The notes: generated by a model not told the origin, from the sequence alone. Shown: positions 1-46,554, counted from the first letter of the whole stretch. The stretch: DNA of 62,382 nt, filler included, from 5 parts of 5 records of this genome joined end to end with filler, not necessarily neighbours in it, one strand, 5' to 3'. Program-made: numbers and translations.

Positions 1-70
1 TGAATCGGCATTCAAGGATATCATTGAAGGGATGTATGCCTGACGACTGCCACCCTTGTCATTCAAGGTC

Positions 71-220
71 CTGGCGGGAAAAGTCACCACCGACATGCAG
101 CAGGTCAGCCAGGCGGCCGAAGAGATGAATACCGGAAGTCTCCAGGTCAAGGAGAGAGCTCAGGAATTATCGGGCCTGGCCGAAAACCTCAACGAATTGA
201 TGAGCAGATTTAAATCTCTA
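71..220 (+). pseudogene. Orphan C-terminal remnant of a methyl-accepting chemotaxis protein
   Basis: Translation KVTTDMQQVSQAAEEMNTGSLQVKERAQELSGLAENLNELMSRFK matches the typical MCP C-terminal helix. The frame is closed just upstream by TGA at 41-43, and no signalling domain is present. Confidence 0.6.
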
Positions 221-257
221 ATCCTTGGAAAGCCTTACACACCAAGGGTTAGTCCCT

Positions 258-1370
258 TTATCTTGAAATCGGGGGAACGATGCCGGTCCCCCCTTTTGAA
301 AGCCGGTTCCTAAGGCTTTTTATCACCATCAGCACAAGCAATAAAATGCCCACATATCCGTTGACGACATACACCAGGTTGACAAATTGAGAAAAAGGCA
401 ATTCCAGGGCCACAAAAAGGCCGATGACAGCCAGGGCCGGGGTCAGCAATTTGAACCGGGTGGTTTTGTCCTGGGTAAACCGGGAAGCGACAGACCATAA
501 AAGCGGCACGGCAGTGGTATAGATCCCTGCAACAATGATCAGGGAAAAAACGGTGGCCAGCTTTGGATGAATTTTCTGGGCTAAGATCAAAGAAGGAATC
601 TGGCTGCCGGCCACATCCTGGATGCAGGCCAGCAGGCCCAGGGCAACAATGATGACTGCGGTTGAAAAGCAGACAGCTCCGATTATGGCCCCGTATGCCG
701 CCTCTTTTTTACTATTGGCGGTGCGCCCTATGGAGGATAGGAATCCTGCCAGCCACAGCATGCAGAAGCCCACATAGGAGCAGGCGGCAAAAAACCAATT
801 GGAAGATGCCCGGGTCAGGTTCAGGGCCGGCAATATCTGATTGGACAGGGCAAGTTGGTCCATATTTTCGATGATTGAAATGACTCCCAGTGCAATGGAG
901 ATGATGACAATGGCCGGCCCGATCCTGCCGATTATTTTGACGATGCGGCCCAGGCCCGCCAACACGGTAATGGCGGCAAGCAGGGTCATGGCGGCGGCCC
1001 CTGCGATTACCGGCAGGCCAAAGTGCTGATGAAAGGTAGCGCCGGCACCGGCGATCATGACGATGAATGACAGATAAATAAAAAGGGTGGAAAAATAATC
1101 AAAAAAAGTTCCCAGGATAGGACCGCAATAGTAAATATAGATGTCTCCTTTTTTTTTGAATTTATTTTCCTGCCCCGCAGTGATGAAGCTTGCCCCCACA
1201 TACAGCAGCAGTACCAGGGTGACCAGTGCCCCGGCGATCCCCATATATCCGTAGGAAGTAAAATATTGCAGCACCTCCTGGCCTGTGGCAAATCCGGAGC
1301 CGATGAGAAAAGCGATAAATGCGCCGGCAAATGAAATGACGTTTTTTATATTGATTGTTTGAGACTTCAT
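258..1370 (-). CDS. YkvI-family membrane protein (putative amino-acid transporter)
   Basis: IGSGFATGQEVLQYF motif and about 10 hydrophobic helices. Confidence 0.8.
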   Translation of the reverse strand: MKSQTINIKNVISFAGAFIAFLIGSGFATGQEVLQYFTSYGYMGIAGALVTLVLLLYVGASFITAGQENKFKKKGDIYIYYCGPILGTFFDYFSTLFIYLSFIVMIAGAGATFHQHFGLPVIAGAAAMTLLAAITVLAGLGRIVKIIGRIGPAIVIISIALGVISIIENMDQLALSNQILPALNLTRASSNWFFAACSYVGFCMLWLAGFLSSIGRTANSKKEAAYGAIIGAVCFSTAVIIVALGLLACIQDVAGSQIPSLILAQKIHPKLATVFSLIIVAGIYTTAVPLLWSVASRFTQDKTTRFKLLTPALAVIGLFVALELPFSQFVNLVYVVNGYVGILLLVLMVIKSLRNRLSKGGTGIVPPISR

Positions 1371-1540
1371 AATGATCCTTTATTTGGGGTCTGATGGCCT
1401 GATACCGGCTCAGCACGAATTTTACGGTCTTTGAAAAAATAAGACGAATCGCGAGACAGGATTACAAGAATTTTAGCGTATTTCTAAAGGGGTATTGTAT
1501 TGCCAGGCGGCTCCGTTGCAGGGGGGATATGGGAAGTACG

Positions 1541-1577
1541 AAAAAGCTGAGACCCCGGGCGGGGTCCAGCTTTTTTT
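1541..1577. terminator. Intrinsic terminator-like hairpin downstream of the racemase gene
   Basis: AAAAAGCTG-A-GACCCCG-GG-CGGGGTC-CAGCTTTTTTT, with A/T tails on both sides. Confidence 0.65.
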
Positions 1578-1617
1578 ATATCTGGATTCGGTTATGGGTC
1601 TTGCTGCTGTCATTGGG

Positions 1618-2400
1618 CTATACGTGGCCGTAATAATCTCTGTGAACAACCACTGAATAGGCATAATCCAACAGGGTGCCCCAGCTGTATACCGGCAGAT
1701 CTACCGCTCTTTGGATGGCCCTTGCAAACGGGGTCATGCTGGTGCATTCAAGGAGCAAGGCCCCCATGCCCGGATTTTTAGCCACAAAGTCCGTTGCAAT
1801 GGCCAGCAGTTCTTTTTCATTTTCATCGTAGTATCCATGGGCCGGACCCAGATCATGGTTCCAGAGATTTTCAAACTGGGGGCAACTGTACTCGTCCCTG
1901 GCACCGGCAATGATAAAGTTGCTGTTCAAATCAATATCTGCCGCCTTAAGATGGTCTGCGGATAAATGATTTTTTTCGGCACAGATGATACCGATGGATT
2001 TTTTGTCCCCAATGGTCTGCCGGATCCAGCTGAACTGAATGAGACTTGACATAAAGGCGGGGATGTCCACATGGTTGGCCACATCTTTCTGAAAATACCC
2101 AAAATAGCCGCACTCGGCCACAAGGGCCCGGCATCCGAATTTTTCCAACTCTGCTGCGGCATCCAGAATGGGCTGGCAACAGGGGGTCTTGTCCTTGCCC
2201 CGTATGAGCATTTCGCAGTCAATGCCCTTTACCACCCCCAATTGCATGGGATAGGGATAGGCGCTGGGATTTCTCAAGTCTCCGGGAAAGGCCGGATAGA
2301 CTTCATCCAGAATAAGGGTGCCAAGCCCCATGCCGTAACCCAGTTTGCCTTGTCTGGCTTTGATGTGACGGATTCCCGGATCTCTGCTGAAATTATACAT
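1618..2400 (-). CDS. Aspartate/glutamate/hydantoin racemase family protein
   Basis: Two catalytic-type Cys motifs (AECGYF, LECTSM) and N-terminal YPAFPGDLRNP. RBS AAGGAG precedes the ATG at 2400. Confidence 0.75.
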   Translation of the reverse strand: MYNFSRDPGIRHIKARQGKLGYGMGLGTLILDEVYPAFPGDLRNPSAYPYPMQLGVVKGIDCEMLIRGKDKTPCCQPILDAAAELEKFGCRALVAECGYFGYFQKDVANHVDIPAFMSSLIQFSWIRQTIGDKKSIGIICAEKNHLSADHLKAADIDLNSNFIIAGARDEYSCPQFENLWNHDLGPAHGYYDENEKELLAIATDFVAKNPGMGALLLECTSMTPFARAIQRAVDLPVYSWGTLLDYAYSVVVHRDYYGHV

Positions 2401-2416
2401 GATCACTCCTTTTCAA

Positions 2417-3874
2417 TTATTCGGGTAATAGATTCAAATAATCTTCCAAATTAAATCCCCGACGGTTGAGAATATCGGACATGGCCCTGTCAAGATCGTT
2501 ATCCTGTGAGGGGGACAGTCTGTTCAGGCTGGATTTGGCCAAAAGCGCATGAACATATTCTGTTGCATGTCCCTGGCAGGAGACCTCTCCTTTGCTTTCC
2601 CAGGCCCCCCTGGCCTTCCGGTCAAAAATGTCGGCAAAATTATATTCTTTTTTAAACCAGTCAAAGGTGAACTTGTTGCTTAAAAAATCTCCTTCAGGCC
2701 CAACGCTTTTTATGACGTCAAACGCCAGAGTTTCCTGATTGATATTGATACCGGATTTAAATTTTTTCACGGATTTGAATATTTCATGGTCCAACACTAT
2801 TTTTTCCAGGCTGTTGCAGTCCATGCCTGCCATGATCCCAAGTCCGTATGCCACATGGGTACCGCTCTGGGCCAGGATCATCTGGCCGATGGCCGAGTCC
2901 GCCCCGGCCTGACAGTCATTTCGTTTACTGTCGCTGTAGCCGAAAATGGCGGCTGTTCCGGCCGGCAGATTGTAAAAATTTGCCATCTGCATGGTGACCG
3001 CGTTCATCATCTGGGCCTCCATGCTGCCCAGGACATTGGAGATATCCCTCATGTCGGCATGGGATGCCCCCCCGCCGTAAACCGTGGGAAGCCCCGGTTC
3101 GACCAGCTGCATGAGAACCAGTCCGCTGAGCAGTTCCACGGTCTGCATGGCAATGGCGCCGGCCATGGTGATGGGGGCGGATACGCCGGCAAAGGGCATT
3201 GCCAACATCAGAGCAGGCATTTTCCGTTTGGCACTTTCCAGAAGATACCCGGAACCTTCCGGGGTCCAGCATAGGGGAGACATGGGACAGGGCTGAACAA
3301 TGGCAAAGGGCTTTTTAACATAATCATCCCCCCGTACCGCCTTGAGCAATTCACAATTGTCCGCCAGGTCAACAAGGTCGATCCCGTCTGCACAGGAGGG
3401 TTTGGCACCGTACTTCAACCTAAGATAAAACCGCCATATTGCGGAAAATTGCTGGGGCACATCCGTTACAAAAGACCCGGGGGCTGTCCAGGACACCTCT
3501 GACAGGTTGTCTGTCAATGTGTACATATTGATCAGATCAGCAGTCTTGGGCGGTCTGATGGTTTTCCCGTCACTGTCCAGAATGTTGATCACCGATCCCC
3601 CGGCGCCCAATTTTAATTCATCGTCTCCCCAGACATATTCTTTTTCCATATCCCTGTCGTACATGCTGAATTCTGCAGGGGCCTGATTCAAGGCGTAGGA
3701 GATCAGATCTTCCGGAATTTTAACCAGTTCCGATTCAAAATCAACCAGGGCACCGGCCTTGTCAAATATTTCAAGGGCCTCTTGGTTATGAAATTTTATA
3801 CCGACTTCGATTAACAATTTCAGAGCAGTTTGATGAATCTGCTCCAGTTGATTGGCAGAAAGTAAATGCGTCAT
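2417..3874 (-). CDS. Trimethylamine methyltransferase (MttB) superfamily corrinoid methyltransferase, non-pyrrolysine type
   Basis: LSANQLEQIHQTALKLLIEVGI start, PCPMSPL, GVSAPITMAG, SDSKRNDCQAG, SLEKIVLDHE and VGPEGDFL motifs. No in-frame TAG. Confidence 0.9.
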   Translation of the reverse strand: MTHLLSANQLEQIHQTALKLLIEVGIKFHNQEALEIFDKAGALVDFESELVKIPEDLISYALNQAPAEFSMYDRDMEKEYVWGDDELKLGAGGSVINILDSDGKTIRPPKTADLINMYTLTDNLSEVSWTAPGSFVTDVPQQFSAIWRFYLRLKYGAKPSCADGIDLVDLADNCELLKAVRGDDYVKKPFAIVQPCPMSPLCWTPEGSGYLLESAKRKMPALMLAMPFAGVSAPITMAGAIAMQTVELLSGLVLMQLVEPGLPTVYGGGASHADMRDISNVLGSMEAQMMNAVTMQMANFYNLPAGTAAIFGYSDSKRNDCQAGADSAIGQMILAQSGTHVAYGLGIMAGMDCNSLEKIVLDHEIFKSVKKFKSGININQETLAFDVIKSVGPEGDFLSNKFTFDWFKKEYNFADIFDRKARGAWESKGEVSCQGHATEYVHALLAKSSLNRLSPSQDNDLDRAMSDILNRRGFNLEDYLNLLPE

Positions 3875-3975
3875 AGTTTACCTCGATCTGGCAGATCCCG
3901 GGCCAGGGGTTGAATTAATGGGATATGAACAGGACGTCAAGGGAATCCCCGTTGGCCGGGGATCCCCACGTTTTT

Positions 3976-4362
3976 TTAATTTGGAATAAGAACAACGGCC
4001 TCAATTTCAACCAGGGCGCCTTTGGGCAGTTTTGACACCTCAACACAGGATCGTGCCGGGCACTCGGTCTTAAAATATTGAGCATAGACCTCGTTTACCT
4101 GGGCGAAACTGTCCATATCCGTGATGAAAATATTAACTTTGACGACATTTTCCATATCAGATCCCAATTCATTGACAATGGTCCGTACATTGTCCAATGC
4201 ATATTTTGCCTGCTCGGCATGGGTCTTTCCTGCGATGTCTCCTGTTGTCACATCAATGGGCAGCTGACCCGATGTAAATGCCAGATTGCCTGCGGTCACA
4301 GCGATTGAATAGGGTCCGACTGCCTCAGGGGCACCTTCGATTTTGGTATATACCTGTTTCAT
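3976..4362 (-). CDS. ridA: RidA-family enamine/imine deaminase
   Basis: APEAVGPYS, SGQLP, VVKVNIF, PARSCVEVSKLPKGALVEIEAV, including the catalytic Arg. Confidence 0.9.
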   Translation of the reverse strand: MKQVYTKIEGAPEAVGPYSIAVTAGNLAFTSGQLPIDVTTGDIAGKTHAEQAKYALDNVRTIVNELGSDMENVVKVNIFITDMDSFAQVNEVYAQYFKTECPARSCVEVSKLPKGALVEIEAVVLIPN

Positions 4363-4386
4363 GAATCTTCCTGCTTTTTAATTGGG

Positions 4387-5640
4387 TTATAACGATACGC
4401 CGTAACTGTTTTTCAACGATTTTGTCAATTCATCCAGTTTGGGCTGTATATAAGGCACTTCCGGCAGATACTTTGCCGTGCTGACAGTGTCTTTTACTCC
4501 TGTAGAGGTCAGCAGCATGACCACATTTTCACCTTCTTTGATCTTTTTTTGTTCAATCAATTGCCGGACCCCGGCCAGACAGGAGGCTGAAGCGGGTTCG
4601 CAGTACAAGCCTTCGTTTTTGGCAATTTCTTTCTGGGCCTGCATTATGGGCTCATCCGTGTCGATCAATACGGTCTTTCCCTGGGATGCCCTGATGGCCT
4701 TCATGGCCTGATAGGCGCCCTTGGAAATGGACATGGAAGCGGCACAGCTTTCCCGGGCCGGAACTTCGGGAATATAGTCCAGGTCTTTGGATATGGCATT
4801 GTGCAGCGGACCATAATTTTCCACTGACACCATCTGGGGAATTTTTTCTATCAATCCCAGTTGTTTCAAGTCTTCAAACCCCTTGTAGATACCGAAAAGA
4901 CCGTCTCCGATGGAGATGGGCACAACAAATTTGTCGGGCAGGGTTTCCATCTGCTCAAAAATTTCATAGGCAATGGTCTTATAGCCTTCGTTGCCCCAGG
5001 CATTGCTGCCCACCAAAGGGTCGACAAAATTGGTTCCCGGGTACCAGCCGAATTCATTGACGCATTTTTCCATGAGCACCCAGCGGTCTTCGTAAGTTTC
5101 CAGAGCCACCACCGCAGCCCCGTACACCTGCATAAAAGCCTTGAATGAGGCCGAGGCTTTTTTCACCGTCAGAATCAGACAGGGCATGCCGGCTTTGGCC
5201 GCATAGGCAGCACCGGAAGCTCCGTTGTTTCCGGTGGTGGCAAAAACCGTTCCCGGGGCCCCCATCTCTCTGGCTTTGTTGATCAGTACCGCATTGAGCC
5301 GGTCCTTCTGGCTCCAGGTGGGGTTCCGGGACTCATCTTTTGCATAAAGATTGATCCCCAGGTCCTGGGATAGTTTATCAAATTTCACCGTGGGGGTGTT
5401 GCCCTCGGACAATGAGATAAACTCTTTTTTGTCCTTGAGGGGCAGCAATTCCTTATACCTGAAAATGCTTTTTTCCGGATTATTTTTCAGGCTGGCAAAA
5501 TAATCTTCGTTCGTATAGTCGTATATGGGGGATACGTTGGAGACAAATCTGTCTGTCTTGCACTGGGGACAGCCTTCGAACATTTTTTCGCTTTCAAAGA
5601 CCGCCCCGCATTTCAAGCATTCCACTTTACCTGTATACAT
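4387..5640 (-). CDS. Threonine-synthase-like fold-type II PLP enzyme with N-terminal zinc ribbon
   Basis: CLKC..CPQC, LSEGNTP, NPTWSQKDR (PLP Lys), TTGNNGAS, EGYKTIAYEI, EGLYCEPASA. Confidence 0.8.
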   Translation of the reverse strand: MYTGKVECLKCGAVFESEKMFEGCPQCKTDRFVSNVSPIYDYTNEDYFASLKNNPEKSIFRYKELLPLKDKKEFISLSEGNTPTVKFDKLSQDLGINLYAKDESRNPTWSQKDRLNAVLINKAREMGAPGTVFATTGNNGASGAAYAAKAGMPCLILTVKKASASFKAFMQVYGAAVVALETYEDRWVLMEKCVNEFGWYPGTNFVDPLVGSNAWGNEGYKTIAYEIFEQMETLPDKFVVPISIGDGLFGIYKGFEDLKQLGLIEKIPQMVSVENYGPLHNAISKDLDYIPEVPARESCAASMSISKGAYQAMKAIRASQGKTVLIDTDEPIMQAQKEIAKNEGLYCEPASASCLAGVRQLIEQKKIKEGENVVMLLTSTGVKDTVSTAKYLPEVPYIQPKLDELTKSLKNSYGVSL

Positions 5641-5673
5641 TATTTGATACCCTTGTTGTTAAATTGTCTTTGC

Positions 5674-6861
5674 TTAAATTATCGTAATCTGTGCCGGGCG
5701 TTCGGAAAACACCTGTGTCCCCTCGCTCGTCACGCGGACGACTTCCTCTACCTGGAGTCCGCCAAACCCGAATTCGTAATAAGGCGTTTCAATACAAAAA
5801 ACCATATTCTCCTCCAGGGGCGTATGGGCAGTCGGGGTTACCAGGGGCGGATCATAGACTTCAATACCAATGCCGTGGCCCACATGGTGGCGCTGGTAAT
5901 GGGGAATACCGTTTTCCCTTACCGCCTTCATGGTGGTTTCATAAACCTGGGATGCCAGGACCCCGGGCTTCATGATGTTGATTCCGGCTTCGGTGCCTTT
6001 ACGGATGGCGGCAAAATAATCCAGGTGTTTCTGGGTGGGCTCGCCCAGGATACCGATTCTGGCCGTGTCAGAATGATAATGACGATAGGTGCAGCCGACA
6101 TCAAACCTTACAAGGCCGCCTTTTTTAATTTTCCTGTCCGTAACCTGGGCATTGGCGGAACCGGAGTGTTCATTAACCCCTACCACGTTCAGGGTCGGTA
6201 TACCTCCGTTCATGACGATTTCCCGGGAAAAAATGGCGAACATCTCTTTTTCGGTCATCCCTTCTTTGACCTCACTCATGGCCGTTTTGATGGCCGACTC
6301 GGTCAGGGCAATGGATTGTTCCAGCCGTTCAAGTTCTTCCCGAGTCTTTACCATCCGGGTTTTTTGCAGCACCTCATAGGCCGGCTCGAATGTTGTATTC
6401 AACTCGGCTTCCAGTTGTCTGACCAGCACAAAAGGAACATTTCGTTCGTCCAGCCCGATTTTCTGATTTTCGCACCCCAGGGATTTCAGGGCATCCACCA
6501 AGGCCTGCAGGGGATCTGAAAATCCACTGGCAATGCTTTTCAGCCGCTTGTATTCGTCTTCCTGGACGGTGAGACCGGTATTGCCGACATCTTCCATGAT
6601 GCAGGTGCCGTAGCTTCTAAACGAAGATATCCAGGAAGGGTTGTCGGACAATATATCGATATCAGACTCGGGTATGACCAGGACGGGCTCTTTTTTCTGG
6701 TCCCGGGGATATACCACATAGGCCTGGGTGCCTTTGAGCTGCCAATGGCCCAGACTCCAGAATTCGGACAGGTAGACCACGTTTTCCGGTGACGATGCAA
6801 TGATAACGTCAAGGCCTTTTTCGTCCATCAGTTTTAATAATCTGCTTTTATTAAACAACAT
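5674..6861 (-). CDS. M24-family metallohydrolase (Xaa-Pro peptidase/creatinase fold)
   Basis: Creatinase-N-like N-terminus, RMVKTREE, and intact metal ligands in RFDVG, HSDTAR, HHVGHGIG, CIETP, VEE. RBS AGAGGA precedes the ATG at 6861. Confidence 0.85.
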   Translation of the reverse strand: MLFNKSRLLKLMDEKGLDVIIASSPENVVYLSEFWSLGHWQLKGTQAYVVYPRDQKKEPVLVIPESDIDILSDNPSWISSFRSYGTCIMEDVGNTGLTVQEDEYKRLKSIASGFSDPLQALVDALKSLGCENQKIGLDERNVPFVLVRQLEAELNTTFEPAYEVLQKTRMVKTREELERLEQSIALTESAIKTAMSEVKEGMTEKEMFAIFSREIVMNGGIPTLNVVGVNEHSGSANAQVTDRKIKKGGLVRFDVGCTYRHYHSDTARIGILGEPTQKHLDYFAAIRKGTEAGINIMKPGVLASQVYETTMKAVRENGIPHYQRHHVGHGIGIEVYDPPLVTPTAHTPLEENMVFCIETPYYEFGFGGLQVEEVVRVTSEGTQVFSERPAQITII

Positions 6862-6923
6862 TTTATGTATCCTCTTTGTAAATTTACGGTTGTTTTCCAA
6901 TAATGCCTTTTGGCTTTCGGGTT

Positions 6924-6952
6924 ATCCCCGGGACGAAAATCGTCCCGGGGAT
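6924..6952. repeat. Perfect 13-bp intercistronic hairpin between BCCT and M24 genes
   Basis: ATCCCCGGGACGA-AAA-TCGTCCCGGGGAT with no U-tract. Confidence 0.7.
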
Positions 6953-6956
6953 CGTC

Positions 6957-8537
6957 TTAGTTGGCTATTTCGTTATTTTGTTTCAGGTAATCAATGGTTA
7001 AAAAGTCACGTTTTTCCATTGGAAAATCCTTGTTAAGCATTTTTACCAATGCCATGCAAAGGATGAGGGAGACCAGCATCAATGGGACTGAAAAGACCAG
7101 AGAAGAGACCTGGATGGCGCTCAAGCCCCCGATGGCAGCCAAAGTGCCGGTCACGGCCAGCAGGATCACCGCCCACAGCAGCTTGTTGGCCGTGGTGGGT
7201 TCTTCGTCACCCTTCAACTGAACCGTTGCGATGGATGCACAGGTAAAGGCGGTGGAATCCAGAGAGGTGGCCACAAAGGTAAACAACAGCAATGTGTGTA
7301 AAAAGACCATGATCCCGCCCATGGGCATGGATTGGATAATCTGGAGTACCGTAGCATTTGTTCCCAGTTCGGAAAGGGTCTTGGCCACATCCAGACCGCC
7401 GTTAAGCTGCATGTCTATGACATAGGCGCCGAATACCGTCTGGATAATGTATACGCAGGCGCTGATGGCCAGGGTCGAACCGAAAACCACCTCACGCACC
7501 GTCCGCCCCTTGGAGATTCTGCCGATGAAAAGGCCTACAGCCGTTGCAAATCCAAGATACCAGGCCCAGTAGAAAACAGTCCAGCTCTCAACAAACCCTG
7601 TGCTTTCAATGGGATCCATGAAGGTGCTAAGCCTAATGATGTTCTGAAGCATCTGGCCACCGGAATTGACGAACATTTTGAGCATAAAAATTGTGGGCCC
7701 CATGAGGGCTACCAGGGCGATGAATATCGAGGCCAGAATGATATTGAAATTACTCAATACCTTGATGCCTTTTTCCAGTCCTCTGTATACACTGATGCCG
7801 AAGACAAGGGTCCAGGTGATCAGAAGACCGGCCATGATTGCCGGGGAGGGTTCCACACCGATCATACTGCAAAAACCTTCCTGAACCACGGGAACTGCCA
7901 TTCCGAATGAGGTGGACATGCCGCCGATGACCCCGAACAAAACCATGATATCAATGGCTTTGCCGATCCAGCCGCTGACGATCCGTTCGCCGAGAATGGG
8001 TTCGCATGCACTGCTGACCTTGAAAAAGGGTTTTTTTCTTACATGGAGGATATAGGCAATGCCCACTGAAAACGGAACATAGCAGGAATAAGCCACCGGG
8101 CTCCAGTGGAACATGGTCTGGGTCAGGGCCCATTCGTAGGCAGCCGAAGAAAAAGCCTCAATGCCGTAGGGAGGGTTTTTATAGTAAAAGACCGGCTCCA
8201 CAAACCCCCATACCATAATACTTGCGGCCATGGTGGTCATAAATATCATGGCAAACCAGCTGAAAACAGAGAATTGTGCTTTTTCATCCGGGGCACACAG
8301 CTTGACCTTGTTGAACCTGCCGAAGGCCAGCCAAAGTGAGAAAAAAGATGTTCCGATGATACACAGCAGGTAGGCCCAGCCCAATTTGTACTCACACCAT
8401 GTAAGAATGGATTTAATTACCTTGGTGCTTTGTTCAACATCAATCATCAAATATAAACAAATGGCTGCCAGCACCAGCAGTGCCGGCCACATAATTACAT
8501 GATCAATAGAACTAAACGGTCGGTTGTCGTTACGCAT
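6957..8537 (-). CDS. BCCT-family (betaine/carnitine/choline) transporter
   Basis: About 12 TM helices, FSVFSWFAMIF, TMFHW, GLEKGIKVLSNFN, WTVFYWAW...FIGRISKGRTVRE. Confidence 0.92.
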   Translation of the reverse strand: MRNDNRPFSSIDHVIMWPALLVLAAICLYLMIDVEQSTKVIKSILTWCEYKLGWAYLLCIIGTSFFSLWLAFGRFNKVKLCAPDEKAQFSVFSWFAMIFMTTMAASIMVWGFVEPVFYYKNPPYGIEAFSSAAYEWALTQTMFHWSPVAYSCYVPFSVGIAYILHVRKKPFFKVSSACEPILGERIVSGWIGKAIDIMVLFGVIGGMSTSFGMAVPVVQEGFCSMIGVEPSPAIMAGLLITWTLVFGISVYRGLEKGIKVLSNFNIILASIFIALVALMGPTIFMLKMFVNSGGQMLQNIIRLSTFMDPIESTGFVESWTVFYWAWYLGFATAVGLFIGRISKGRTVREVVFGSTLAISACVYIIQTVFGAYVIDMQLNGGLDVAKTLSELGTNATVLQIIQSMPMGGIMVFLHTLLLFTFVATSLDSTAFTCASIATVQLKGDEEPTTANKLLWAVILLAVTGTLAAIGGLSAIQVSSLVFSVPLMLVSLILCMALVKMLNKDFPMEKRDFLTIDYLKQNNEIAN

Positions 8538-8660
8538 TTCACCTCTCCTTCTTGGGATTAAAAAAATTACGATACGCTTTCGTTATTACAGTGATTTGTC
8601 TAGATGGGATTCGTCACCGGGGCTTCGCCCTTAAAAACCGGATTGTCTAAACAACACTAT

Positions 8661-9326
8661 CTATTTTTCATTTGGCTTTTTTCCGGATGCGCTTTCTCTG
8701 ATTTCTTTCAAGTACGAGTATACGGTAAATTTTGAGATCCCCATTCCGTTTCCGACAATTTCGACAGCCCCCTTGATCAGAAACGCCCCCTGTTCTTCCA
8801 GAAGGCCGATCAGATCGATTCTTTCCGTCCGGGTCATGGCCTTGGGGGCCTTGCCAATGGCTTTAATAGCCTTTTCCAGAAAGGATTCAACGGTTTCGTT
8901 CTTGGAGGATGCAAAGGTCTCCTGGCTGTCATTGCCTGCGGGTTCGGGAATGGCGGTCAGTTCTTCTATAAACGAAGAAAATCCAATGGCATCGGTGATA
9001 TCAAAATTCACACAGAATGCCCCGATAATGGAGCCTTCAGGGTTCCGGATAAACGTGGTCGAAGACTTGAGGGTTTTACCGTCTTTGGAGGTGTTCCGAT
9101 AAAAGGGCATATCCTGGGCAGCGTCTCCGTTCCGGCGCAATACACTCAAAACCATATCCGTTAAAGGAGCACCGATTTCACGGTTGGTCACATTGCCGGA
9201 AACATGAATGACCGACTGGGAGACATCAGCGAAATCATGAATCACAACCTCGCATCTTGAACCAAAGGCTTTAACTATGGTTTGACTCACCCGGATAAAG
9301 TTTTGCCAAATATGCGAATTGTCCAT
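8661..9326 (-). CDS. YheO/DauR-like PAS domain plus HTH transcriptional regulator
   Basis: CEVVIHD, GNVTNREIGAPLTD, DGKTLKSST, GAFLIKGAVE..MGISKFTVYSYL. Confidence 0.88.
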   Translation of the reverse strand: MDNSHIWQNFIRVSQTIVKAFGSRCEVVIHDFADVSQSVIHVSGNVTNREIGAPLTDMVLSVLRRNGDAAQDMPFYRNTSKDGKTLKSSTTFIRNPEGSIIGAFCVNFDITDAIGFSSFIEELTAIPEPAGNDSQETFASSKNETVESFLEKAIKAIGKAPKAMTRTERIDLIGLLEEQGAFLIKGAVEIVGNGMGISKFTVYSYLKEIRESASGKKPNEK

Positions 9327-9379
9327 GATCAGCCTCCCGGTTGTTAGGGTAATAATAAATCTGTTTTTTATTGTCGGTG

Positions 9380-9436
9380 ATAATACGCAACCCGCCCCGG
9401 CCTGTCAACAAAAAATTGTATGTCTTACAATTTTTT
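9380..9436 (-). promoter_or_regulatory. Sigma70 promoter with an adjacent palindromic operator upstream of the PAS-HTH gene
   Basis: Minus strand TTGACA (9408-9403), 17-nt spacer, TATTAT (9385-9380). Inverted repeat AAAAAATTGTA-N5-TACAATTTTTT at 9410-9436. Confidence 0.65.
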
Positions 9437-9617
9437 TTATATTTCAAATAATTTTTGTGTTTCTTACTAGAGCAGCAGGGAATACAACAGAAAAGGCTGT
9501 GTGGCGGCAGGGGAACATACGTTAGGAGAAAGGAGGGTAAAACGGTGCTGACGGTTGACCCGCAGCACCGAAAAATTAAAATGATCCCTATTATCGGAAT
9601 TTGCACACATGGCGAGA

Positions 9618-9803
9618 TCAGCTTTCAATAACGCCGGAACGGACTCCCTTAAGGTACTCCATGCAGAATGGGTCATGGCCCAGCAGCATGTCGGCGGTTC
9701 TGATGGTAGCCATAATTTTTTTATCCAATGGATCGATAATCGCCGAGTCCATGCCGGCATCCATCATCAGGGTTACAAAGGTCCGGTTGATGATATGGCG
9801 CTG
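9618..9803 (-). CDS. Methyltetrahydrofolate:corrinoid methyltransferase (AcsE/MT2-like), C-terminal part, truncated at the contig edge
   Basis: Manual translation QRHIINRTFVTLMMDAGMDSAIIDPLDKKIMATIRTADMLLGHDPFCMEYLKGVRSGVIES*. GMDSAIIDP and LLG.D.FC..Y are characteristic of MeTr/AcsE. Confidence 0.85.
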   Translation of the reverse strand, partial: QRHIINRTFVTLMMDAGMDSAIIDPLDKKIMATIRTADMLLGHDPFCMEYLKGVRSGVIES

Positions 9804-9804
9804 G

Positions 9805-9904
9805 NNNNNNNNNNNNNNNNNNNNNNNNNNNNNNNNNNNNNNNNNNNNTTAATTAATTAANNNNNNNNNNNNNNNNNNNNNNNNNNNNNNNNNNNNNNNN
9901 NNNN
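9805..9904. other. Artificial contig linker
   Basis: 100 nt: N-run, TTAATTAATTAA (stops in all six frames), N-run. Confidence 0.98.
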
Positions 9905-17686: not shown

Positions 17687-17786
17687 NNNNNNNNNNNNNN
17701 NNNNNNNNNNNNNNNNNNNNNNNNNNNNNNTTAATTAATTAANNNNNNNNNNNNNNNNNNNNNNNNNNNNNNNNNNNNNNNNNNNN
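17687..17786. other. Artificial contig linker
   Basis: N-run, TTAATTAATTAA, N-run. Confidence 0.98.
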
Positions 17787-27278: not shown

Positions 27279-27378
27279 NNNNNNNNNNNNNNNNNNNNNN
27301 NNNNNNNNNNNNNNNNNNNNNNTTAATTAATTAANNNNNNNNNNNNNNNNNNNNNNNNNNNNNNNNNNNNNNNNNNNN
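27279..27378. other. Artificial contig linker
   Basis: N-run, TTAATTAATTAA, N-run. Confidence 0.98.
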
Positions 27379-38199: not shown

Positions 38200-38299
38200 N
38201 NNNNNNNNNNNNNNNNNNNNNNNNNNNNNNNNNNNNNNNNNNNTTAATTAATTAANNNNNNNNNNNNNNNNNNNNNNNNNNNNNNNNNNNNNNNNNNNN
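38200..38299. other. Artificial contig linker
   Basis: N-run, TTAATTAATTAA, N-run. Confidence 0.98.
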
Positions 38300-39957: not shown

Positions 39958-41163
39958 TTATGTTGTTTGATCAACATGATATCCGGAAGATCTGAGGGCA
40001 TTCAAAAGAGTATGAAGGTGGGAAAGCCCTCTGGTTTGTACCACAAATTCCACTTCAGCGGATTGAAGGGGTAGATCCGTAAAGGCTCTCTGGTGGTGCA
40101 CCTCCACAATATTGGCGCCGGCATCGGCGATACAGCGGGTTACATGCGATAAGGCCCCGGGAAAATCTCGCAGTTCCACCCGCAACCGGACGAGCCGTCC
40201 GGTCCGCACCAGGCCCCGCTGAATGATGGAAGAAAGGGGGAGCAGATCGATGTTTCCCCCGGAGAGGATCAGGCCTGTTCTTTTTCCTTTGAAGCGTGAT
40301 TTGTGCTTCATGACGGCGGCAAGTCCCACGGCTCCTGCGCCCTCTACCACCGTTTTTTCAATCTCCAGAAGCAACAGCACCGCCTTTTCGATATCCGCTT
40401 CGTCCACCAGGAGGATATCGTCAACCTTCTCTTTGATAATTGGCAAAGGCAGTCGTCCCGGTTCTTTGACGGCAATGCCTTCGGCAAGGGTGCATTTTCC
40501 CCATACGGGAGATGTTTCCTTGAGGGTGCAATACATGGATGCATAACCTTTGACTTCAATCCCGATGATGGATATCTCGGGGTTTAAGGACTTGGCGGCA
40601 ACGGCGCATCCCGCAATAAAGCCGCCGCCCCCGACGGGTACCACAATGGCCTCCAGATCGGGAAAAGCTTCCAGCATTTCCAAGGCGACCGTCCCCTGAC
40701 CCGCCATGACTTTTTCATCGTCATAGGGATGGATTAATTCAAGGCCCCTTTCAACGGCCAGCTCTTTTGCAAAAACGCTCGCTTCGTCAAAATCTTCCCC
40801 TTCGAGGATGACTTCCGCTTTGAAAGCCCGGGTATGTTCCACTTTGAGGTTGGGGGTATATCGGGGCATGATGATGACCGCCGGGATTTCCAGGTTCCGG
40901 GCGTGGTAGGCCACGGCCTGGGCATGATTTCCCGCGGACATGGCGATGACCCCGGCTTTTCGACTTTTCGGGGATAGGGAAAGCAGCTTGTTTAGTGCGC
41001 CGCGTTCCTTGAAAGAACCCGTGAACTGGAGATTCTCAAACTTCAAAATCAGGGACGTGCCGGTAATTTCAGAAAGGGTGGTAGACGGGGCGCAATGGGT
41101 TTTTACAATTCTCCCGTGAATGTTTGTTGCGGCATTGGTTATGTCTTTCAAGGTGAGGGCCAT
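39958..41163 (-). CDS. ilvA: Threonine ammonia-lyase with C-terminal ACT domain
   Basis: KFENLQFTGSFKERGA, SAGNHAQA, PVGGGG, SGGNID, DFPGAL. Confidence 0.88.
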   Translation of the reverse strand: MALTLKDITNAATNIHGRIVKTHCAPSTTLSEITGTSLILKFENLQFTGSFKERGALNKLLSLSPKSRKAGVIAMSAGNHAQAVAYHARNLEIPAVIIMPRYTPNLKVEHTRAFKAEVILEGEDFDEASVFAKELAVERGLELIHPYDDEKVMAGQGTVALEMLEAFPDLEAIVVPVGGGGFIAGCAVAAKSLNPEISIIGIEVKGYASMYCTLKETSPVWGKCTLAEGIAVKEPGRLPLPIIKEKVDDILLVDEADIEKAVLLLLEIEKTVVEGAGAVGLAAVMKHKSRFKGKRTGLILSGGNIDLLPLSSIIQRGLVRTGRLVRLRVELRDFPGALSHVTRCIADAGANIVEVHHQRAFTDLPLQSAEVEFVVQTRGLSHLHTLLNALRSSGYHVDQTT

Positions 41164-44508: not shown

Positions 44509-46239
44509 TTAAAAGTCAAATACCGAATCCAGGTGTTCGTCGGGAACATCAAATACAACGTCATGGGGCGGAAGCTTTTCCGTCCTGAAAAATTCAGGAA
44601 GCCTGTCATCTGCCCGGGTAAACCCTGCACGGGTGTTGAAATCCGTCTCCATTTTTAAAACCCGCTGACCGAGTGCGCCGATATCATCTCCGGTGAGGGT
44701 GAGGCCGTATTTGGCGTTTACCATATCCACGATGGCGGTAAAGGCATCTGGAATGTCCAGTACCGGAAAGGCCACGAAAAGACAGAGTCCGGCCGTGTCG
44801 ATGGCGGCCGTGGCCACCTGTAGATCGCTCGACAGCTTGGCCTGGCTTTCGGTTCTGAGGGGGTGGACATCTCCGCCCACTTTCATGATGTTGGTGGCAA
44901 CGGCATAGCCGGCCGTATGGTCTCCGCCCATGGGCGATGTGGCATAGGTTACGCCCACACCCTTTACGGCCCTTGGATCATAAGCGGGAAGCGCCTGGTT
45001 TTTGACGACGGGAACCCGCCTTACACCAAAGGTTTTTCCCGTAACGCCTGCGCCGGAACCCAAGATTCGACCCAGGGGAGTCCCTTCGCCGATCTCATTG
45101 ACCAACGCCTCGGCCCCTGCCGTGTCGCCGAATTCCTTGATGCCGCCTTCCATGGCCACGGCCACGGCATTACCGGTTTCAATGGTATCGATTCCGATGT
45201 CGTCGCAGGCCCGATCCATCCGTGCGATGGCGTCCAGGTCTGAGATTTCGCAATTGGGTCCAAATGCCCACACCGTTTCATATTCCGGCCACTTTGAAAC
45301 ATGATCCCCTTTTTCATTCAGGTAAATTCCGGAGCACCGGATCACGCAACCGGACATGCAGCCGTGGGTCGGATCCCCCTTACGTTCAACTGTGATTTTG
45401 TTCAAGCTTTCACCGCCTACCAAATCAGCGCTTTCGAAACGTCCGGAACTGAAGTTGCGAGTGGGGAGTGCCCCGGCCTCGTTAATCACGTTGATCAGAA
45501 CGTCCGTGCCGTAGGTGGGCAACCCCTGGCTGGTCACCGGATGTTCCATCAGGGCTTTTGCAAAGCGTTTGGCGGCTGCCTTGAACGCCTCTTTGTCCGC
45601 CAGGGGTGCCAATTCTCCGCCTTCCGGATCAATGATAATGGCTTTGAGGCCCTTGGAGCCCATGACGGCACCCAACCCACCGCGGCCGGCGTGTCGGGTG
45701 GGACGAAGTTCCCTATCCGTGAAGGCCACGCTGGCGGAAGCCAGCTTCCACTCGCCTGCTTGACCGATACTGACGTAACCCATGTCGAGTCCGTATTCAT
45801 CTTTGAGCCTCTCCACCGTGGCATAGTTTCCCATGCCTTTCAGTTCATCGGCTTCCTGGAGTTCACATTTGTCTTTACCGACGAGCAGTTTGTAGAGTTT
45901 ATCTTCTTTGGGCATGCCCTCAACGATGATGGCTGAAATGCCGAGTCGGGAGAGATATCCTCCTGCCTGGCCACCTGAGTTGGCTTCCTTTATGCCGCCG
46001 GTCAGCGGGCTTTTTCCGCCCACGGAAATACGCCCGGAGTTGGCACAGTTGGTTCCCCCCAGAAGCCCGGGAGCAAATACGAGTTTGTTGTTGGGACCAA
46101 TGGGAGAACAAATGGGATCCACTTCCTTGTTGATTATTGCAGCCGTCAGCCCTCTCCCCCCCAGACCTTGATAGTCGCCGGATATTTCTTCGCTGCTTGT
46201 GGAGAGTTCCGTCATGTTGACCCTCAGGATTTTAAACAT
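44509..46239 (-). CDS. aor: Aldehyde:ferredoxin oxidoreductase (tungsten AOR family)
   Basis: KILRVNM, KSPLTGGIKEANSGG, GRGGLGAVMGSKGLKAI, CMSGCVIRC, PEYET, GLCLF. RBS AGGAGG. Confidence 0.92.
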   Translation of the reverse strand: MFKILRVNMTELSTSSEEISGDYQGLGGRGLTAAIINKEVDPICSPIGPNNKLVFAPGLLGGTNCANSGRISVGGKSPLTGGIKEANSGGQAGGYLSRLGISAIIVEGMPKEDKLYKLLVGKDKCELQEADELKGMGNYATVERLKDEYGLDMGYVSIGQAGEWKLASASVAFTDRELRPTRHAGRGGLGAVMGSKGLKAIIIDPEGGELAPLADKEAFKAAAKRFAKALMEHPVTSQGLPTYGTDVLINVINEAGALPTRNFSSGRFESADLVGGESLNKITVERKGDPTHGCMSGCVIRCSGIYLNEKGDHVSKWPEYETVWAFGPNCEISDLDAIARMDRACDDIGIDTIETGNAVAVAMEGGIKEFGDTAGAEALVNEIGEGTPLGRILGSGAGVTGKTFGVRRVPVVKNQALPAYDPRAVKGVGVTYATSPMGGDHTAGYAVATNIMKVGGDVHPLRTESQAKLSSDLQVATAAIDTAGLCLFVAFPVLDIPDAFTAIVDMVNAKYGLTLTGDDIGALGQRVLKMETDFNTRAGFTRADDRLPEFFRTEKLPPHDVVFDVPDEHLDSVFDF

Positions 46240-46554
46240 ACCAACCTCCTTTTTCTTGGTCGTTTGAAATTGCTTACATCCGCCTTTGAGGTGCCTCATC
46301 AGCGGTGCCGCCGGTTCAGGTTGTCTCAATTTTTCTTTGAGGAAAACCACACCGCTATCAGCATGCATCAAAAAAATAGGAATATCAAGAAAAATATGCA
46401 TAGAATTCAATTGTTTAGATCAATCTTGATATAAGCCCCGGTTGATAGAAAAGATTGACAGGTATTGAAATATAGTGATAATCAAAAAAGTTAAGCTTGC
46501 TTTCGTTGGATGGTTGTACTTCCTTTGATATGAACGTTTTGCAGGATTGTGCTG

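Follow-up and report, generated by a model that had tools for sequence, protein, structure and literature searches.

Quaternary amines and sulfonium compounds are major osmolytes, feeding methane and sulfide production in anoxic sediments. The MtgB/MtgC/MtgA system of Desulfitobacterium hafniense and the MtpB, MtcB, MtyB and MthB enzymes of Eubacterium limosum have in common a TIM-barrel methyltransferase of the MttB family that is not of the pyrrolysine type (non-Pyl; PF06253), and to our knowledge only a handful of such enzymes have known substrates. In the aerobic degradation of proline betaine and hydroxyproline betaine, the HpbD 2-epimerase acts before the demethylases. The ectoine pathways (EutA-E and DoeA-D) bring together M24 hydrolases, fold-type-II pyridoxal phosphate (PLP) enzymes and Asp/Glu racemases, and DauR regulates D-amino-acid catabolism in Pseudomonas aeruginosa. 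Here we describe a gene cluster around a non-Pyl MttB, located at one end of a 62,382-nt stretch of DNA (the window, analysed at its full length) from a relative of sediment sulfate-reducers. It appears to be a real catabolic operon for a chiral onium amino-acid derivative, joining genes for methyl removal to genes for breakdown of an amino-acid backbone. A preliminary description of the same DNA had proposed import, demethylation and dismantling of an N-methylated amino-acid derivative, and this reading was partly supported.

The locus resembles the MtgBCA and Mtp-type systems in having a corrinoid protein gene beside its orthologue in a close relative (genome G002), a Pterin_bind-type methyltetrahydrofolate:corrinoid methyltransferase (MT2) next door, and RACo-type activases encoded in trans in relatives. 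It differs from them in that its MttB lies in an operon with a BCCT carrier, an M24 hydrolase, a ThrC-like PLP enzyme, RidA and a two-cysteine racemase-fold partner. With the HpbD pathway it shares the pairing of an epimerase or racemase with a betaine demethylase, which would make both stereoisomers usable; however, HpbD belongs to the enolase superfamily and its demethylases are oxygenases or flavoenzymes, whereas here an Asp/Glu racemase fold accompanies a predicted corrinoid-dependent, oxygen-independent demethylase. As in the DauR system, a PAS_6 and HTH_22 regulator heads an amino-acid catabolic operon in which stereochemistry would matter, but this operon has no DauA or DauB homologues and would serve another substrate class.

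The nine co-oriented genes of the preliminary description were all recovered as reading frames on the minus strand, at the coordinates it had given and with family matches (Table 1), the name YkvI coming from language-model look-alikes only. From the MT2 piece to the YkvI-like gene, the intergenic gaps measured 291, 123, 56, 33, 24, 101, 10 and 247 bp. Seven of the genes, yheO-BCCT-M24-ThrC-like-ridA-mttB-racemase-like (9326 down to 1618), were taken as one tight unit, probably transcribed as a single message, because the gaps between them are of 10-123 bp, a promoter-like site precedes yheO and a terminator follows the racemase-like gene; the cluster proposed earlier was thus borne out as an operon-like unit for these seven. 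Consensus matching alone gave 17 promoter-like sites in the region against 11.2 +/- 3.7 expected by chance, a total so near the expectation that only the position of the site at 9408-9380 counts. The terminator hairpin (about 1576-1542) had a folding energy of -23.4 kcal/mol and a z score of -3.3, none of 200 shuffled sequences being equally stable. Nothing in Rfam matched at E <= 0.1 across positions 1-9804, indicating that this contig carries no recognisable cobalamin or other riboswitch.

The MttB protein matched PF06253 over nearly its full length (residues 2-472 on model positions 31-495 of 500), and its gene is an uninterrupted open reading frame (ORF) of 485 codons with no in-frame UAG (pyrrolysine) codon, in agreement with its earlier designation as non-Pyl. 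It was rejected as a trimethylamine methyltransferase proper, since it lacks the UAG codon and scored 346.7 bits with TIGR02369, below the cut-off of 525. In an index of 5.8 billion proteins, 26 of the 69 MttB matches were at least 46% identical and the next dropped to 35%. An exhaustive search of 1.84 billion representatives gave 1080 matches at E <= 1e-30, and among the best 150 of these only three (one of them a fragment) reached 47% identity, all others having 36% or less. By these comparisons, the protein is placed in a very small subclade.

Its closest solved structures were MtgB (9yce/2qne), with 181 bits, and the Pyl-type MttB, with 162 bits. In one report (PMC13080624), the residues of MtgB that contact glycine betaine are given as Y97, F356, H348 and R312. 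In a pairwise alignment to 9yce, whose chain numbering is offset by 2 (verified at all four contact positions), Y97, R312, H348 and F356 faced G93, G306, Y343 and M351, and both glycines were invariant in a 16-sequence alignment of the clade. Because all four contacts are replaced, the protein cannot be regarded as an MtgB, and glycine betaine was rejected as its substrate. Grouping with MtgB, which the preliminary description had named, along with action on glycine betaine only and independent regulation of the other genes, as fatal to its own proposal, is thus not indicated; identity outside the clade is at most 36%. The predicted activity is methyl transfer from an onium substrate to a Co(I) corrinoid protein. 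Each of five genomes surveyed in the order Desulfobacterales contained 11-32 MttB-family matches in 4.2-7.0 Mb; several of these had one in-frame TAG, as expected of pyrrolysine-type genes.

The protein encoded immediately after MttB scored only 24.7 bits with Pfam PF01177, under the cut-off of 31, and a PDB sequence search returned nothing at E <= 0.01, so that it was placed by fold search only. Its predicted model (pLDDT, the predicted local distance difference test, 78.9) matched aspartate and hydantoin racemases in Foldseek with TM (template modelling) scores of 0.54-0.68, probability 1.00 and 11-17% identity. C99 and C221 were invariant in all 19 racemase-like sequences compared, the mean column identity being 75%. 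This fold and the two catalytic-type cysteines indicate that the protein belongs to the Asp/Glu/hydantoin racemase superfamily.

The pairing of MttB with this racemase-fold protein is conserved across two phyla. The racemase-like family was present in 48 of 401 genomes of the order, and when the best 30 of 57 places were taken with 1.5-kb flanks, an MttB-family gene was found within that distance in 19 of them, two being the already known loci of genomes G001 and G002. A random site would lie within 1.5 kb of an MttB-family gene in about 2% of cases (a rough estimate from the above-mentioned matches per genome), and 19 of 30 is therefore far above chance. In a sample of 401 genomes of the phylum Bacillota the family occurred in three, with MttB closer than 1.5 kb in two and at 3.9 kb in the third, which gives 21 of 33 loci for the best 30 of 57 and the three Bacillota loci together. 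Among the 12 remaining loci, one (L085) had an MttB-family gene at 3.2 kb, and three (L086, L094 and L096) had none within about 5 kb, showing aminotransferase, enolase-superfamily or old yellow enzyme genes alongside instead. The accompanying MttBs fell into at least seven groups, at most 38% identical to each other, and the racemase-like proteins of those loci stayed 49-61% identical to that of the window. The preliminary description had counted this protein in a hydrolase/lyase/racemase trio, a membership that did not hold, since it tracks MttB and not M24 plus the ThrC-like gene. We found no earlier description of a racemase-fold partner of MttB in the literature searched, where the passages retrieved made no mention of such a partnership and one matching passage concerned lactate racemase instead; in the lineage of the window, the operon seems to fuse this partner with a backbone-degrading set.

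Several of the paired loci have longer gene rows. In a Bacillota locus unrelated to the window (L100), a regulator, the racemase-like gene, two M24 genes, a major facilitator superfamily (MFS) transporter gene, two MttB genes and a corrinoid protein gene are all co-oriented. A second Bacillota locus (L101) contains PanB-like, octopine-dehydrogenase-like, MttB, racemase-like, BCCT, MttB, corrinoid protein and MT2 genes. The row of the third, L102 (G526:C1:276000-295000), consists of GlpB/GlpC-like genes, a sigma-54 activator, BCCT, MttB, racemase-like, a second MttB, a Cys/Met gamma-type PLP enzyme, an FGGY (glycerol-kinase-like) kinase, MttB and a PanB-like gene; as pure speculation, its three MttB paralogues, glycerol genes and gamma-lyase-type enzyme would fit the stepwise demethylation of a glycerol-linked C4 amino-acid betaine. 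Genes of the octopine/nopaline dehydrogenase family adjoin MttB and racemase-like clusters in L101, L093 and L092, PanB-like (ketopantoate hydroxymethyltransferase family) genes lie by such clusters in L101 and L102, and DAO-family oxidoreductase genes adjoin MttB genes in L085 and L091.

A scan of public contigs with the single MttB gave no relative and an alignment-based scan gave three loci; nine related loci were available in all. The racemase-like gene directly followed MttB in the three loci that share 68-81% identity in MttB and extend far enough downstream (L001, L002 and L004), and in none of the four informative loci with 47-48% identity (L003, L006, L007 and L009); L008 was too short to judge and L005 consists of a truncated MttB and a racemase remnant. 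The 47-48% loci had TRAP or ATP-binding cassette (ABC) transporters, and L006 also a corrinoid protein, a URO-D-type MT2 and a RACo activase. No match to the M24, ThrC-like, RidA, BCCT, YheO or YkvI proteins was detected at E <= 1e-5 in any of the nine loci. Genome G002, from which L001 comes, has on a separate contig of 3958 bases the BCCT (83% identity), M24 (82%), ThrC-like (88%) and RidA (79%) genes in the order of the window. This contig stops just past ridA, and L001 begins 63 bases ahead of mttB. Directly after the racemase-like gene of L001, on the same strand, lies a gene for a corrinoid protein of 210 aa with B12-binding and B12-binding_2 domains (L001:2384-3016).

The set probably recurs on four further metagenome contigs, judged only from equal base counts and source: orthologues of MttB, the ThrC-like enzyme and the racemase-like protein (67-79%) were each recorded on contigs of 11760 bases (ENA) and 10031 bases (JGI), and those of MttB and the ThrC-like enzyme both on contigs of 32657 and 5973 bases. 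ThrC-like matches at E <= 1e-40 were present in 37 of the 401 genomes of the order, with identity above 36% in G002 only. In G001 (L002, G001:C1:1812188-1831587) a 68% MttB-racemase pair is accompanied by an Opp-type ABC system and serine hydroxymethyltransferase (SHMT). The pair stands close to the end of a contig of 1.83 Mb, with several transposase and integrase genes (DDE_Tnp_1, rve and IS21 IstB) on its two sides, and these flanking genes suggest that the module is mobile. The co-localisation expected by the preliminary description thus stood in part: the whole set, with a corrinoid protein added, is found in a close relative and probably on the four contigs, but it is limited to close relatives, and further out the MttB plus racemase-like and the M24 plus ThrC-like modules separate.

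The M24 protein was earlier said to retain its metal ligands, and indeed all five (D/D/H/E/E) align to D209, D220, H284, E313 and E327 of the Pyrococcus prolidase 1pv9, which we take to be its ligands and whose residues agree at these positions. PepQ (136.7 against a cut-off of 630 bits), DoeA/EutD (82.7 against 575 and 76.7 against 613) and DddP (32.4 against 600) were rejected as identities for it. The ThrC-like enzyme shares with threonine synthase the fold-type-II PLP fold and the PLP lysine, its Schiff-base Lys aligning to that of the ThrC SFKDR motif, and its top PDB matches were bacterial ThrC (149-165 bits). It differs from ThrC in its cut-offs, in the equivalent of Arg160, in an insertion and in having RidA downstream. 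Compared with the Thermus enzyme (1uim, on which the numbering was verified), it has Gly in place of Arg160, which we take to be the phosphate-binding Arg; 6 residues are inserted, and the loop at the PLP phosphate is altered. The equivalent residue was Gly or Ala in 14 of 14 aligned family members, and the insertion was likewise kept. This comparison rests on PDB ThrC structures, two of the Desulfobacterales references for housekeeping ThrC being wrong ORFs and two others also lacking the Arg. A true threonine synthase was rejected on the replaced Arg160 equivalent and on scores of 216.7 (cut-off 421), 207.9 (cut-off 303) and, for TIGR00260, 139.6 bits (cut-off 167.1). Because ridA lies directly downstream, the likeliest chemistry of the ThrC-like enzyme would be elimination to a 2-oxo acid instead of threonine synthesis.

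The ThrC-like family is large (2320 matches), with 50-54% identical relatives named from Enterocloster, Bacillus and Synergistes. Its pairing with M24 is conserved: in the Bacillota sample, which is drawn from the phylum of genome G003, three genomes had a ThrC-like match at E <= 1e-90 and M24 was adjacent in all three. Two of these loci add EutA/Amdase-like genes, a D-glutamate-cyclase-like gene and an FMN (flavin mononucleotide) reductase, and one of the two (L045) additionally SHMT, a CysK-like PLP enzyme and RidA.

We tentatively favour the reading that one YheO-controlled seven-gene operon takes up and consumes a single onium amino-acid derivative (quaternary-ammonium, possibly sulfonium) with a chiral centre. 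From gene content and conservation, which were observed directly, we infer every step of the following scheme. The BCCT carrier would import the onium compound, and the two-cysteine racemase-fold protein would interconvert stereoisomers of the compound or of its demethylated product, making the whole pool usable by a stereospecific MttB. MttB would load one methyl onto a corrinoid protein in the Co(I) state, presumably supplied here by the neighbouring methyltransferase operon that ends in the MT2 piece at 9618-9803, and MT2 would hand the methyl on to tetrahydrofolate. The metal-dependent M24 enzyme would open an amide bond (prolidase-like, N-substituted), the primary amino acid so released would lose a beta or gamma substituent through the ThrC-like enzyme, and the resulting enamine would be hydrolysed by RidA to a 2-oxo acid and ammonia. 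Demethylation and backbone breakdown may, in this scheme, act on one molecule. If there is one pathway, the onium group is probably carried by the side chain or by the other part of an amide, since a single MttB cannot make a PLP substrate from an alpha-trimethyl amino acid; side-chain onium C4 amino acids (for example S-methylmethionine) or betaine-carrying amides are our guesses for the substrate.

Several points weigh against such a single pathway. As far as we know, N,N-dimethyl amino acids cannot serve PLP enzymes as substrates, and one MttB gives no PLP substrate from an alpha-betaine; the characterised systems (MtgB, MtpB, MtcB and MtyB) remove one methyl group and are not known to us to degrade the backbone. 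Direct observation of the full set is limited to the window and G002, and in G002 the set lies on two contigs. The G001 locus had no M24, ThrC-like, RidA or BCCT matches, the ThrC-like query finding nothing genome-wide in G001 at E <= 1e-20, and in all three Bacillota matches M24 and the ThrC-like gene occur with no MttB at all. No corrinoid protein gene, RACo-type activase or URO-D-type MT2 was matched by tblastn anywhere in the window; the preliminary description had already noted the absence of a corrinoid protein and of a RamA-type activase. Finally, a gap of 101 bp parts RidA from MttB.

The strongest competitor, although we hold it to be somewhat doubtful, is a mosaic operon in which two independent modules, fused behind one promoter, act on different compounds: a YheO-controlled amino-acid or dipeptide deamination module (perhaps BCCT, with M24, the ThrC-like enzyme and RidA) and a betaine demethylation module (MttB and the racemase-like protein). 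Co-transcription would then mirror the co-occurrence of substrates, for example osmolyte and peptide scavenging. The separation of the modules outside the close clade, with MttB and the racemase-like gene of G001 standing without the other genes and the Bacillota M24 plus ThrC-like clusters having their own EutA/Amdase-like genes, SHMT and RidA, favours this view, as do the coincidence of the 101-bp gap, the largest inside the operon past the BCCT gene, with the module border, a YheO-RidA-PALP-ABC-racemase row in G001, and the number of MttB-family genes per genome, from which new juxtapositions easily arise. Against it, none of the terminator-like sites listed with a T tract falls between RidA and MttB, and the junction persists, at 67-88% identity, in G002 and probably also on the four contigs. 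Moreover, M24 genes stand again beside racemase-like and MttB genes in the unrelated L100, and the sole transporter of the operon, which heads the deamination module, is of BCCT, a family for onium compounds. We favour one pathway over the mosaic because M24 (L100) and a gamma-type PLP enzyme (L102) recur by MttB and the racemase-like gene.

It is less probable still that the racemase-fold protein is not a substrate racemase but an accessory common to MttB systems, with, for example, a shared product as its target or a structural or regulatory function. Its conservation (53-61%), far better than that of the MttBs it accompanies (38% or less to each other), and the number of MttB lineages involved would suit such a role; however, the two catalytic-type cysteines do not vary in the 19 sequences compared, active racemases have a matching fold, and more than a third of the loci (12 of 33) have no MttB inside 1.5 kb.

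An anaerobic ectoine or hydroxyectoine pathway of Eut/Doe type, in which M24 would hydrolyse the ring, the PLP enzyme and the racemase-like protein would take the parts of EutB and EutA, and MttB would be incidental, seems very improbable. The parallel with eutD/B/A drawn in the preliminary description stands at the level of the M24, fold-II PLP and racemase superfamilies, BCCT carriers include ectoine carriers, the Bacillota M24-ThrC-like clusters contain genes matching ectoine_eutA at 110-122 bits, and an ornithine cyclodeaminase/mu-crystallin (EutC family) gene lies near a racemase-MttB-BCCT locus (L088). Orthology, in contrast, failed: the M24 score is far below the DoeA/EutD cut-offs, the racemase-like protein had no TIGR02990 (EutA) match at E <= 0.001, and no EutC or EutE/DoeB gene is present on the contig of the cluster, the absence of eutC and eutE being correctly noted earlier. 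Ectoine has no N-methyl group, which leaves MttB unexplained although the racemase-like gene tracks it. No described anaerobic pathway was among the literature matches listed for anaerobic ectoine degradation (Desulfobacter, hydrolase), and nothing relevant was found for the combination of ThrC-like, RidA, M24, BCCT and racemase. Ordinary MtgB-type demethylation of glycine betaine with unrelated neighbours is hardly credible: MtgB is the best match among solved structures and Desulfobacterales are known to demethylate glycine betaine, but the MtgB score is close to that of the Pyl-type MttB, the four contacts are replaced, with both glycines invariant in the clade, and an achiral substrate would leave a racemase partner without purpose.

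From the conserved racemase-fold partner it would follow that many of the MttB substrates still to be characterised have a chiral centre and are probably betaines of alpha-amino acids. An operon in which demethylation is tied to a hydrolase and a predicted eliminating PLP enzyme hints at anaerobes that consume the complete compound rather than a single methyl group. The racemase partner and the coupled operon could guide the discovery of MttB substrates. A bolder proposal, which we consider unlikely, is that MttB and its PRK07475-type racemase represent an unrecognised cross-phylum class of stereo-converting, corrinoid-dependent demethylation for chiral amino-acid betaines or sulfonium amino acids, of which this operon would be the first case wired to full mineralisation of the carbon-nitrogen backbone, by the hydrolase, the ThrC-like enzyme and RidA, instead of excretion of the demethylated product; its substrate would be a marine onium amino acid with a C4 skeleton, akin to S-methylmethionine or homoserine betaine.

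Table 1. Features of the MttB cluster and joints of the analysed DNA (positions in the window)
Feature	Position	Strand	Evidence or remark
YkvI-like membrane protein, putative permease	258..1370	-	370 aa; language-model look-alikes score 0.98, 29/30 named YkvI
Intrinsic terminator	1542..1576 (about)	-	A-tract, 15-pair stem, U-tract; ~40 nt past racemase-like stop codon
Two-cysteine racemase-fold protein (PRK07475 family)	1618..2406	-	NF005679 239 bits vs 231 cut-off; 10 bp past MttB gene
Non-Pyl MttB-superfamily methyltransferase, rare subclade	2417..3874	-	PF06253 270.4 bits vs cut-off 25
RidA enamine/imine deaminase	3976..4362	-	TIGR00004 155.3 bits vs 106.25
ThrC-like fold-type-II PLP enzyme	4387..5640	-	PALP PF00291 201.5 bits; N-terminal CxxC...CxxC zinc ribbon
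M24B-type metallohydrolase (Creatinase_N + Peptidase_M24)	5674..6900	-	All five metal ligands present
Perfect 13-bp-stem palindromic hairpin	6924..6952		In 56-bp BCCT-M24 gap; processing site, attenuator or protein-binding site conceivable
BCCT-family carrier	6957..8537	-	PF02028 456.5 bits vs family model
YheO/DauR-type regulator, first operon gene	8661..9326	-	PAS_6 PF08348 115.2 bits + HTH_22 PF13309 70.5 bits
Promoter-like site TTGACA-17-TATTAT	9380..9408	-	Ahead of YheO gene; 11/12 consensus matches, best of 17 sites in region
MT2 3' end	9618..9803	-	61 codons + stop; NF005719 positions 205-263 of 268, E 9e-20
Artificial linkers	9805-9904, 17687-17786, 27279-27378, 38200-38299		

The BCCT carrier scored below every specific NCBIfam equivalog: 400.8 bits against 541 for CaiT (the best), 360.3 against 650 for the betaine BCCT and 242.6 against 695 for BetT. 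The regulator has two paralogues in G001, 41-42% identical to it, one heading a row of genes and one at its far end (L054, G001:C4:660000-679900). Between them lie RidA, a PALP dehydratase-like gene, a polar amino-acid ABC transporter and a classical Asp/Glu racemase, and this is a second YheO-associated amino-acid deamination set in the order. Past this row there are a Fic gene and 2-oxoacid:ferredoxin oxidoreductase genes.

Two genes assigned to the cluster by the preliminary description more likely lie outside it. The YkvI-like product gave no Pfam or NCBIfam matches, and its gene was rejected as a conserved member of the cluster, since it lies past the terminator and was found neither beside the cluster in G002, where a corrinoid protein gene holds its position, nor in the nine related loci; it probably forms a transcription unit of its own. 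The MT2 gene is truncated by the assembly, whose contig stops at 9804, rather than in the organism itself. Genome G002 has two orthologues of the MT2 piece (84-87%), both last in canonical operons, one formed by an MttB paralogue, a corrinoid protein and MT2, and the other (L051) by an MttB paralogue, an MFS gene, an MttB in two ORFs, a corrinoid protein and MT2. For this reason, the piece most likely closes a separate upstream MttB-paralogue/corrinoid/MT2 operon past the contig end, and this operon could supply the MttB of the cluster with a corrinoid protein and MT2. RACo-type activases are encoded elsewhere in G001 and G002 (four matches each). The divided MttB-family gene of L051 (G002:C501) is formed by two consecutive ORFs of 294 and 177 aa, at 2931-3815 and 3830-4363.

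The whole stretch is not one molecule, being composed of five contigs joined by four N44-TTAATTAATTAA-N44 linkers, and 9804/9805 is an artificial joint. The remaining four contigs were rejected as context for the cluster, being unlinked to it and carrying unrelated genes and no methyltransferase components. In the fifth, a PALP enzyme gene and an aldehyde:ferredoxin oxidoreductase gene occur at 39958-41163 and 44509-46410, unlinked to the cluster and giving no evidence on it. The G+C content across the stretch spans 0.31 to 0.61, and the second contig (9905-17686), with FakA/YloV, TetR, MatE and purE/purC/purF-like genes, is far more A+T-rich than that of the cluster and may come from another organism in the bin.

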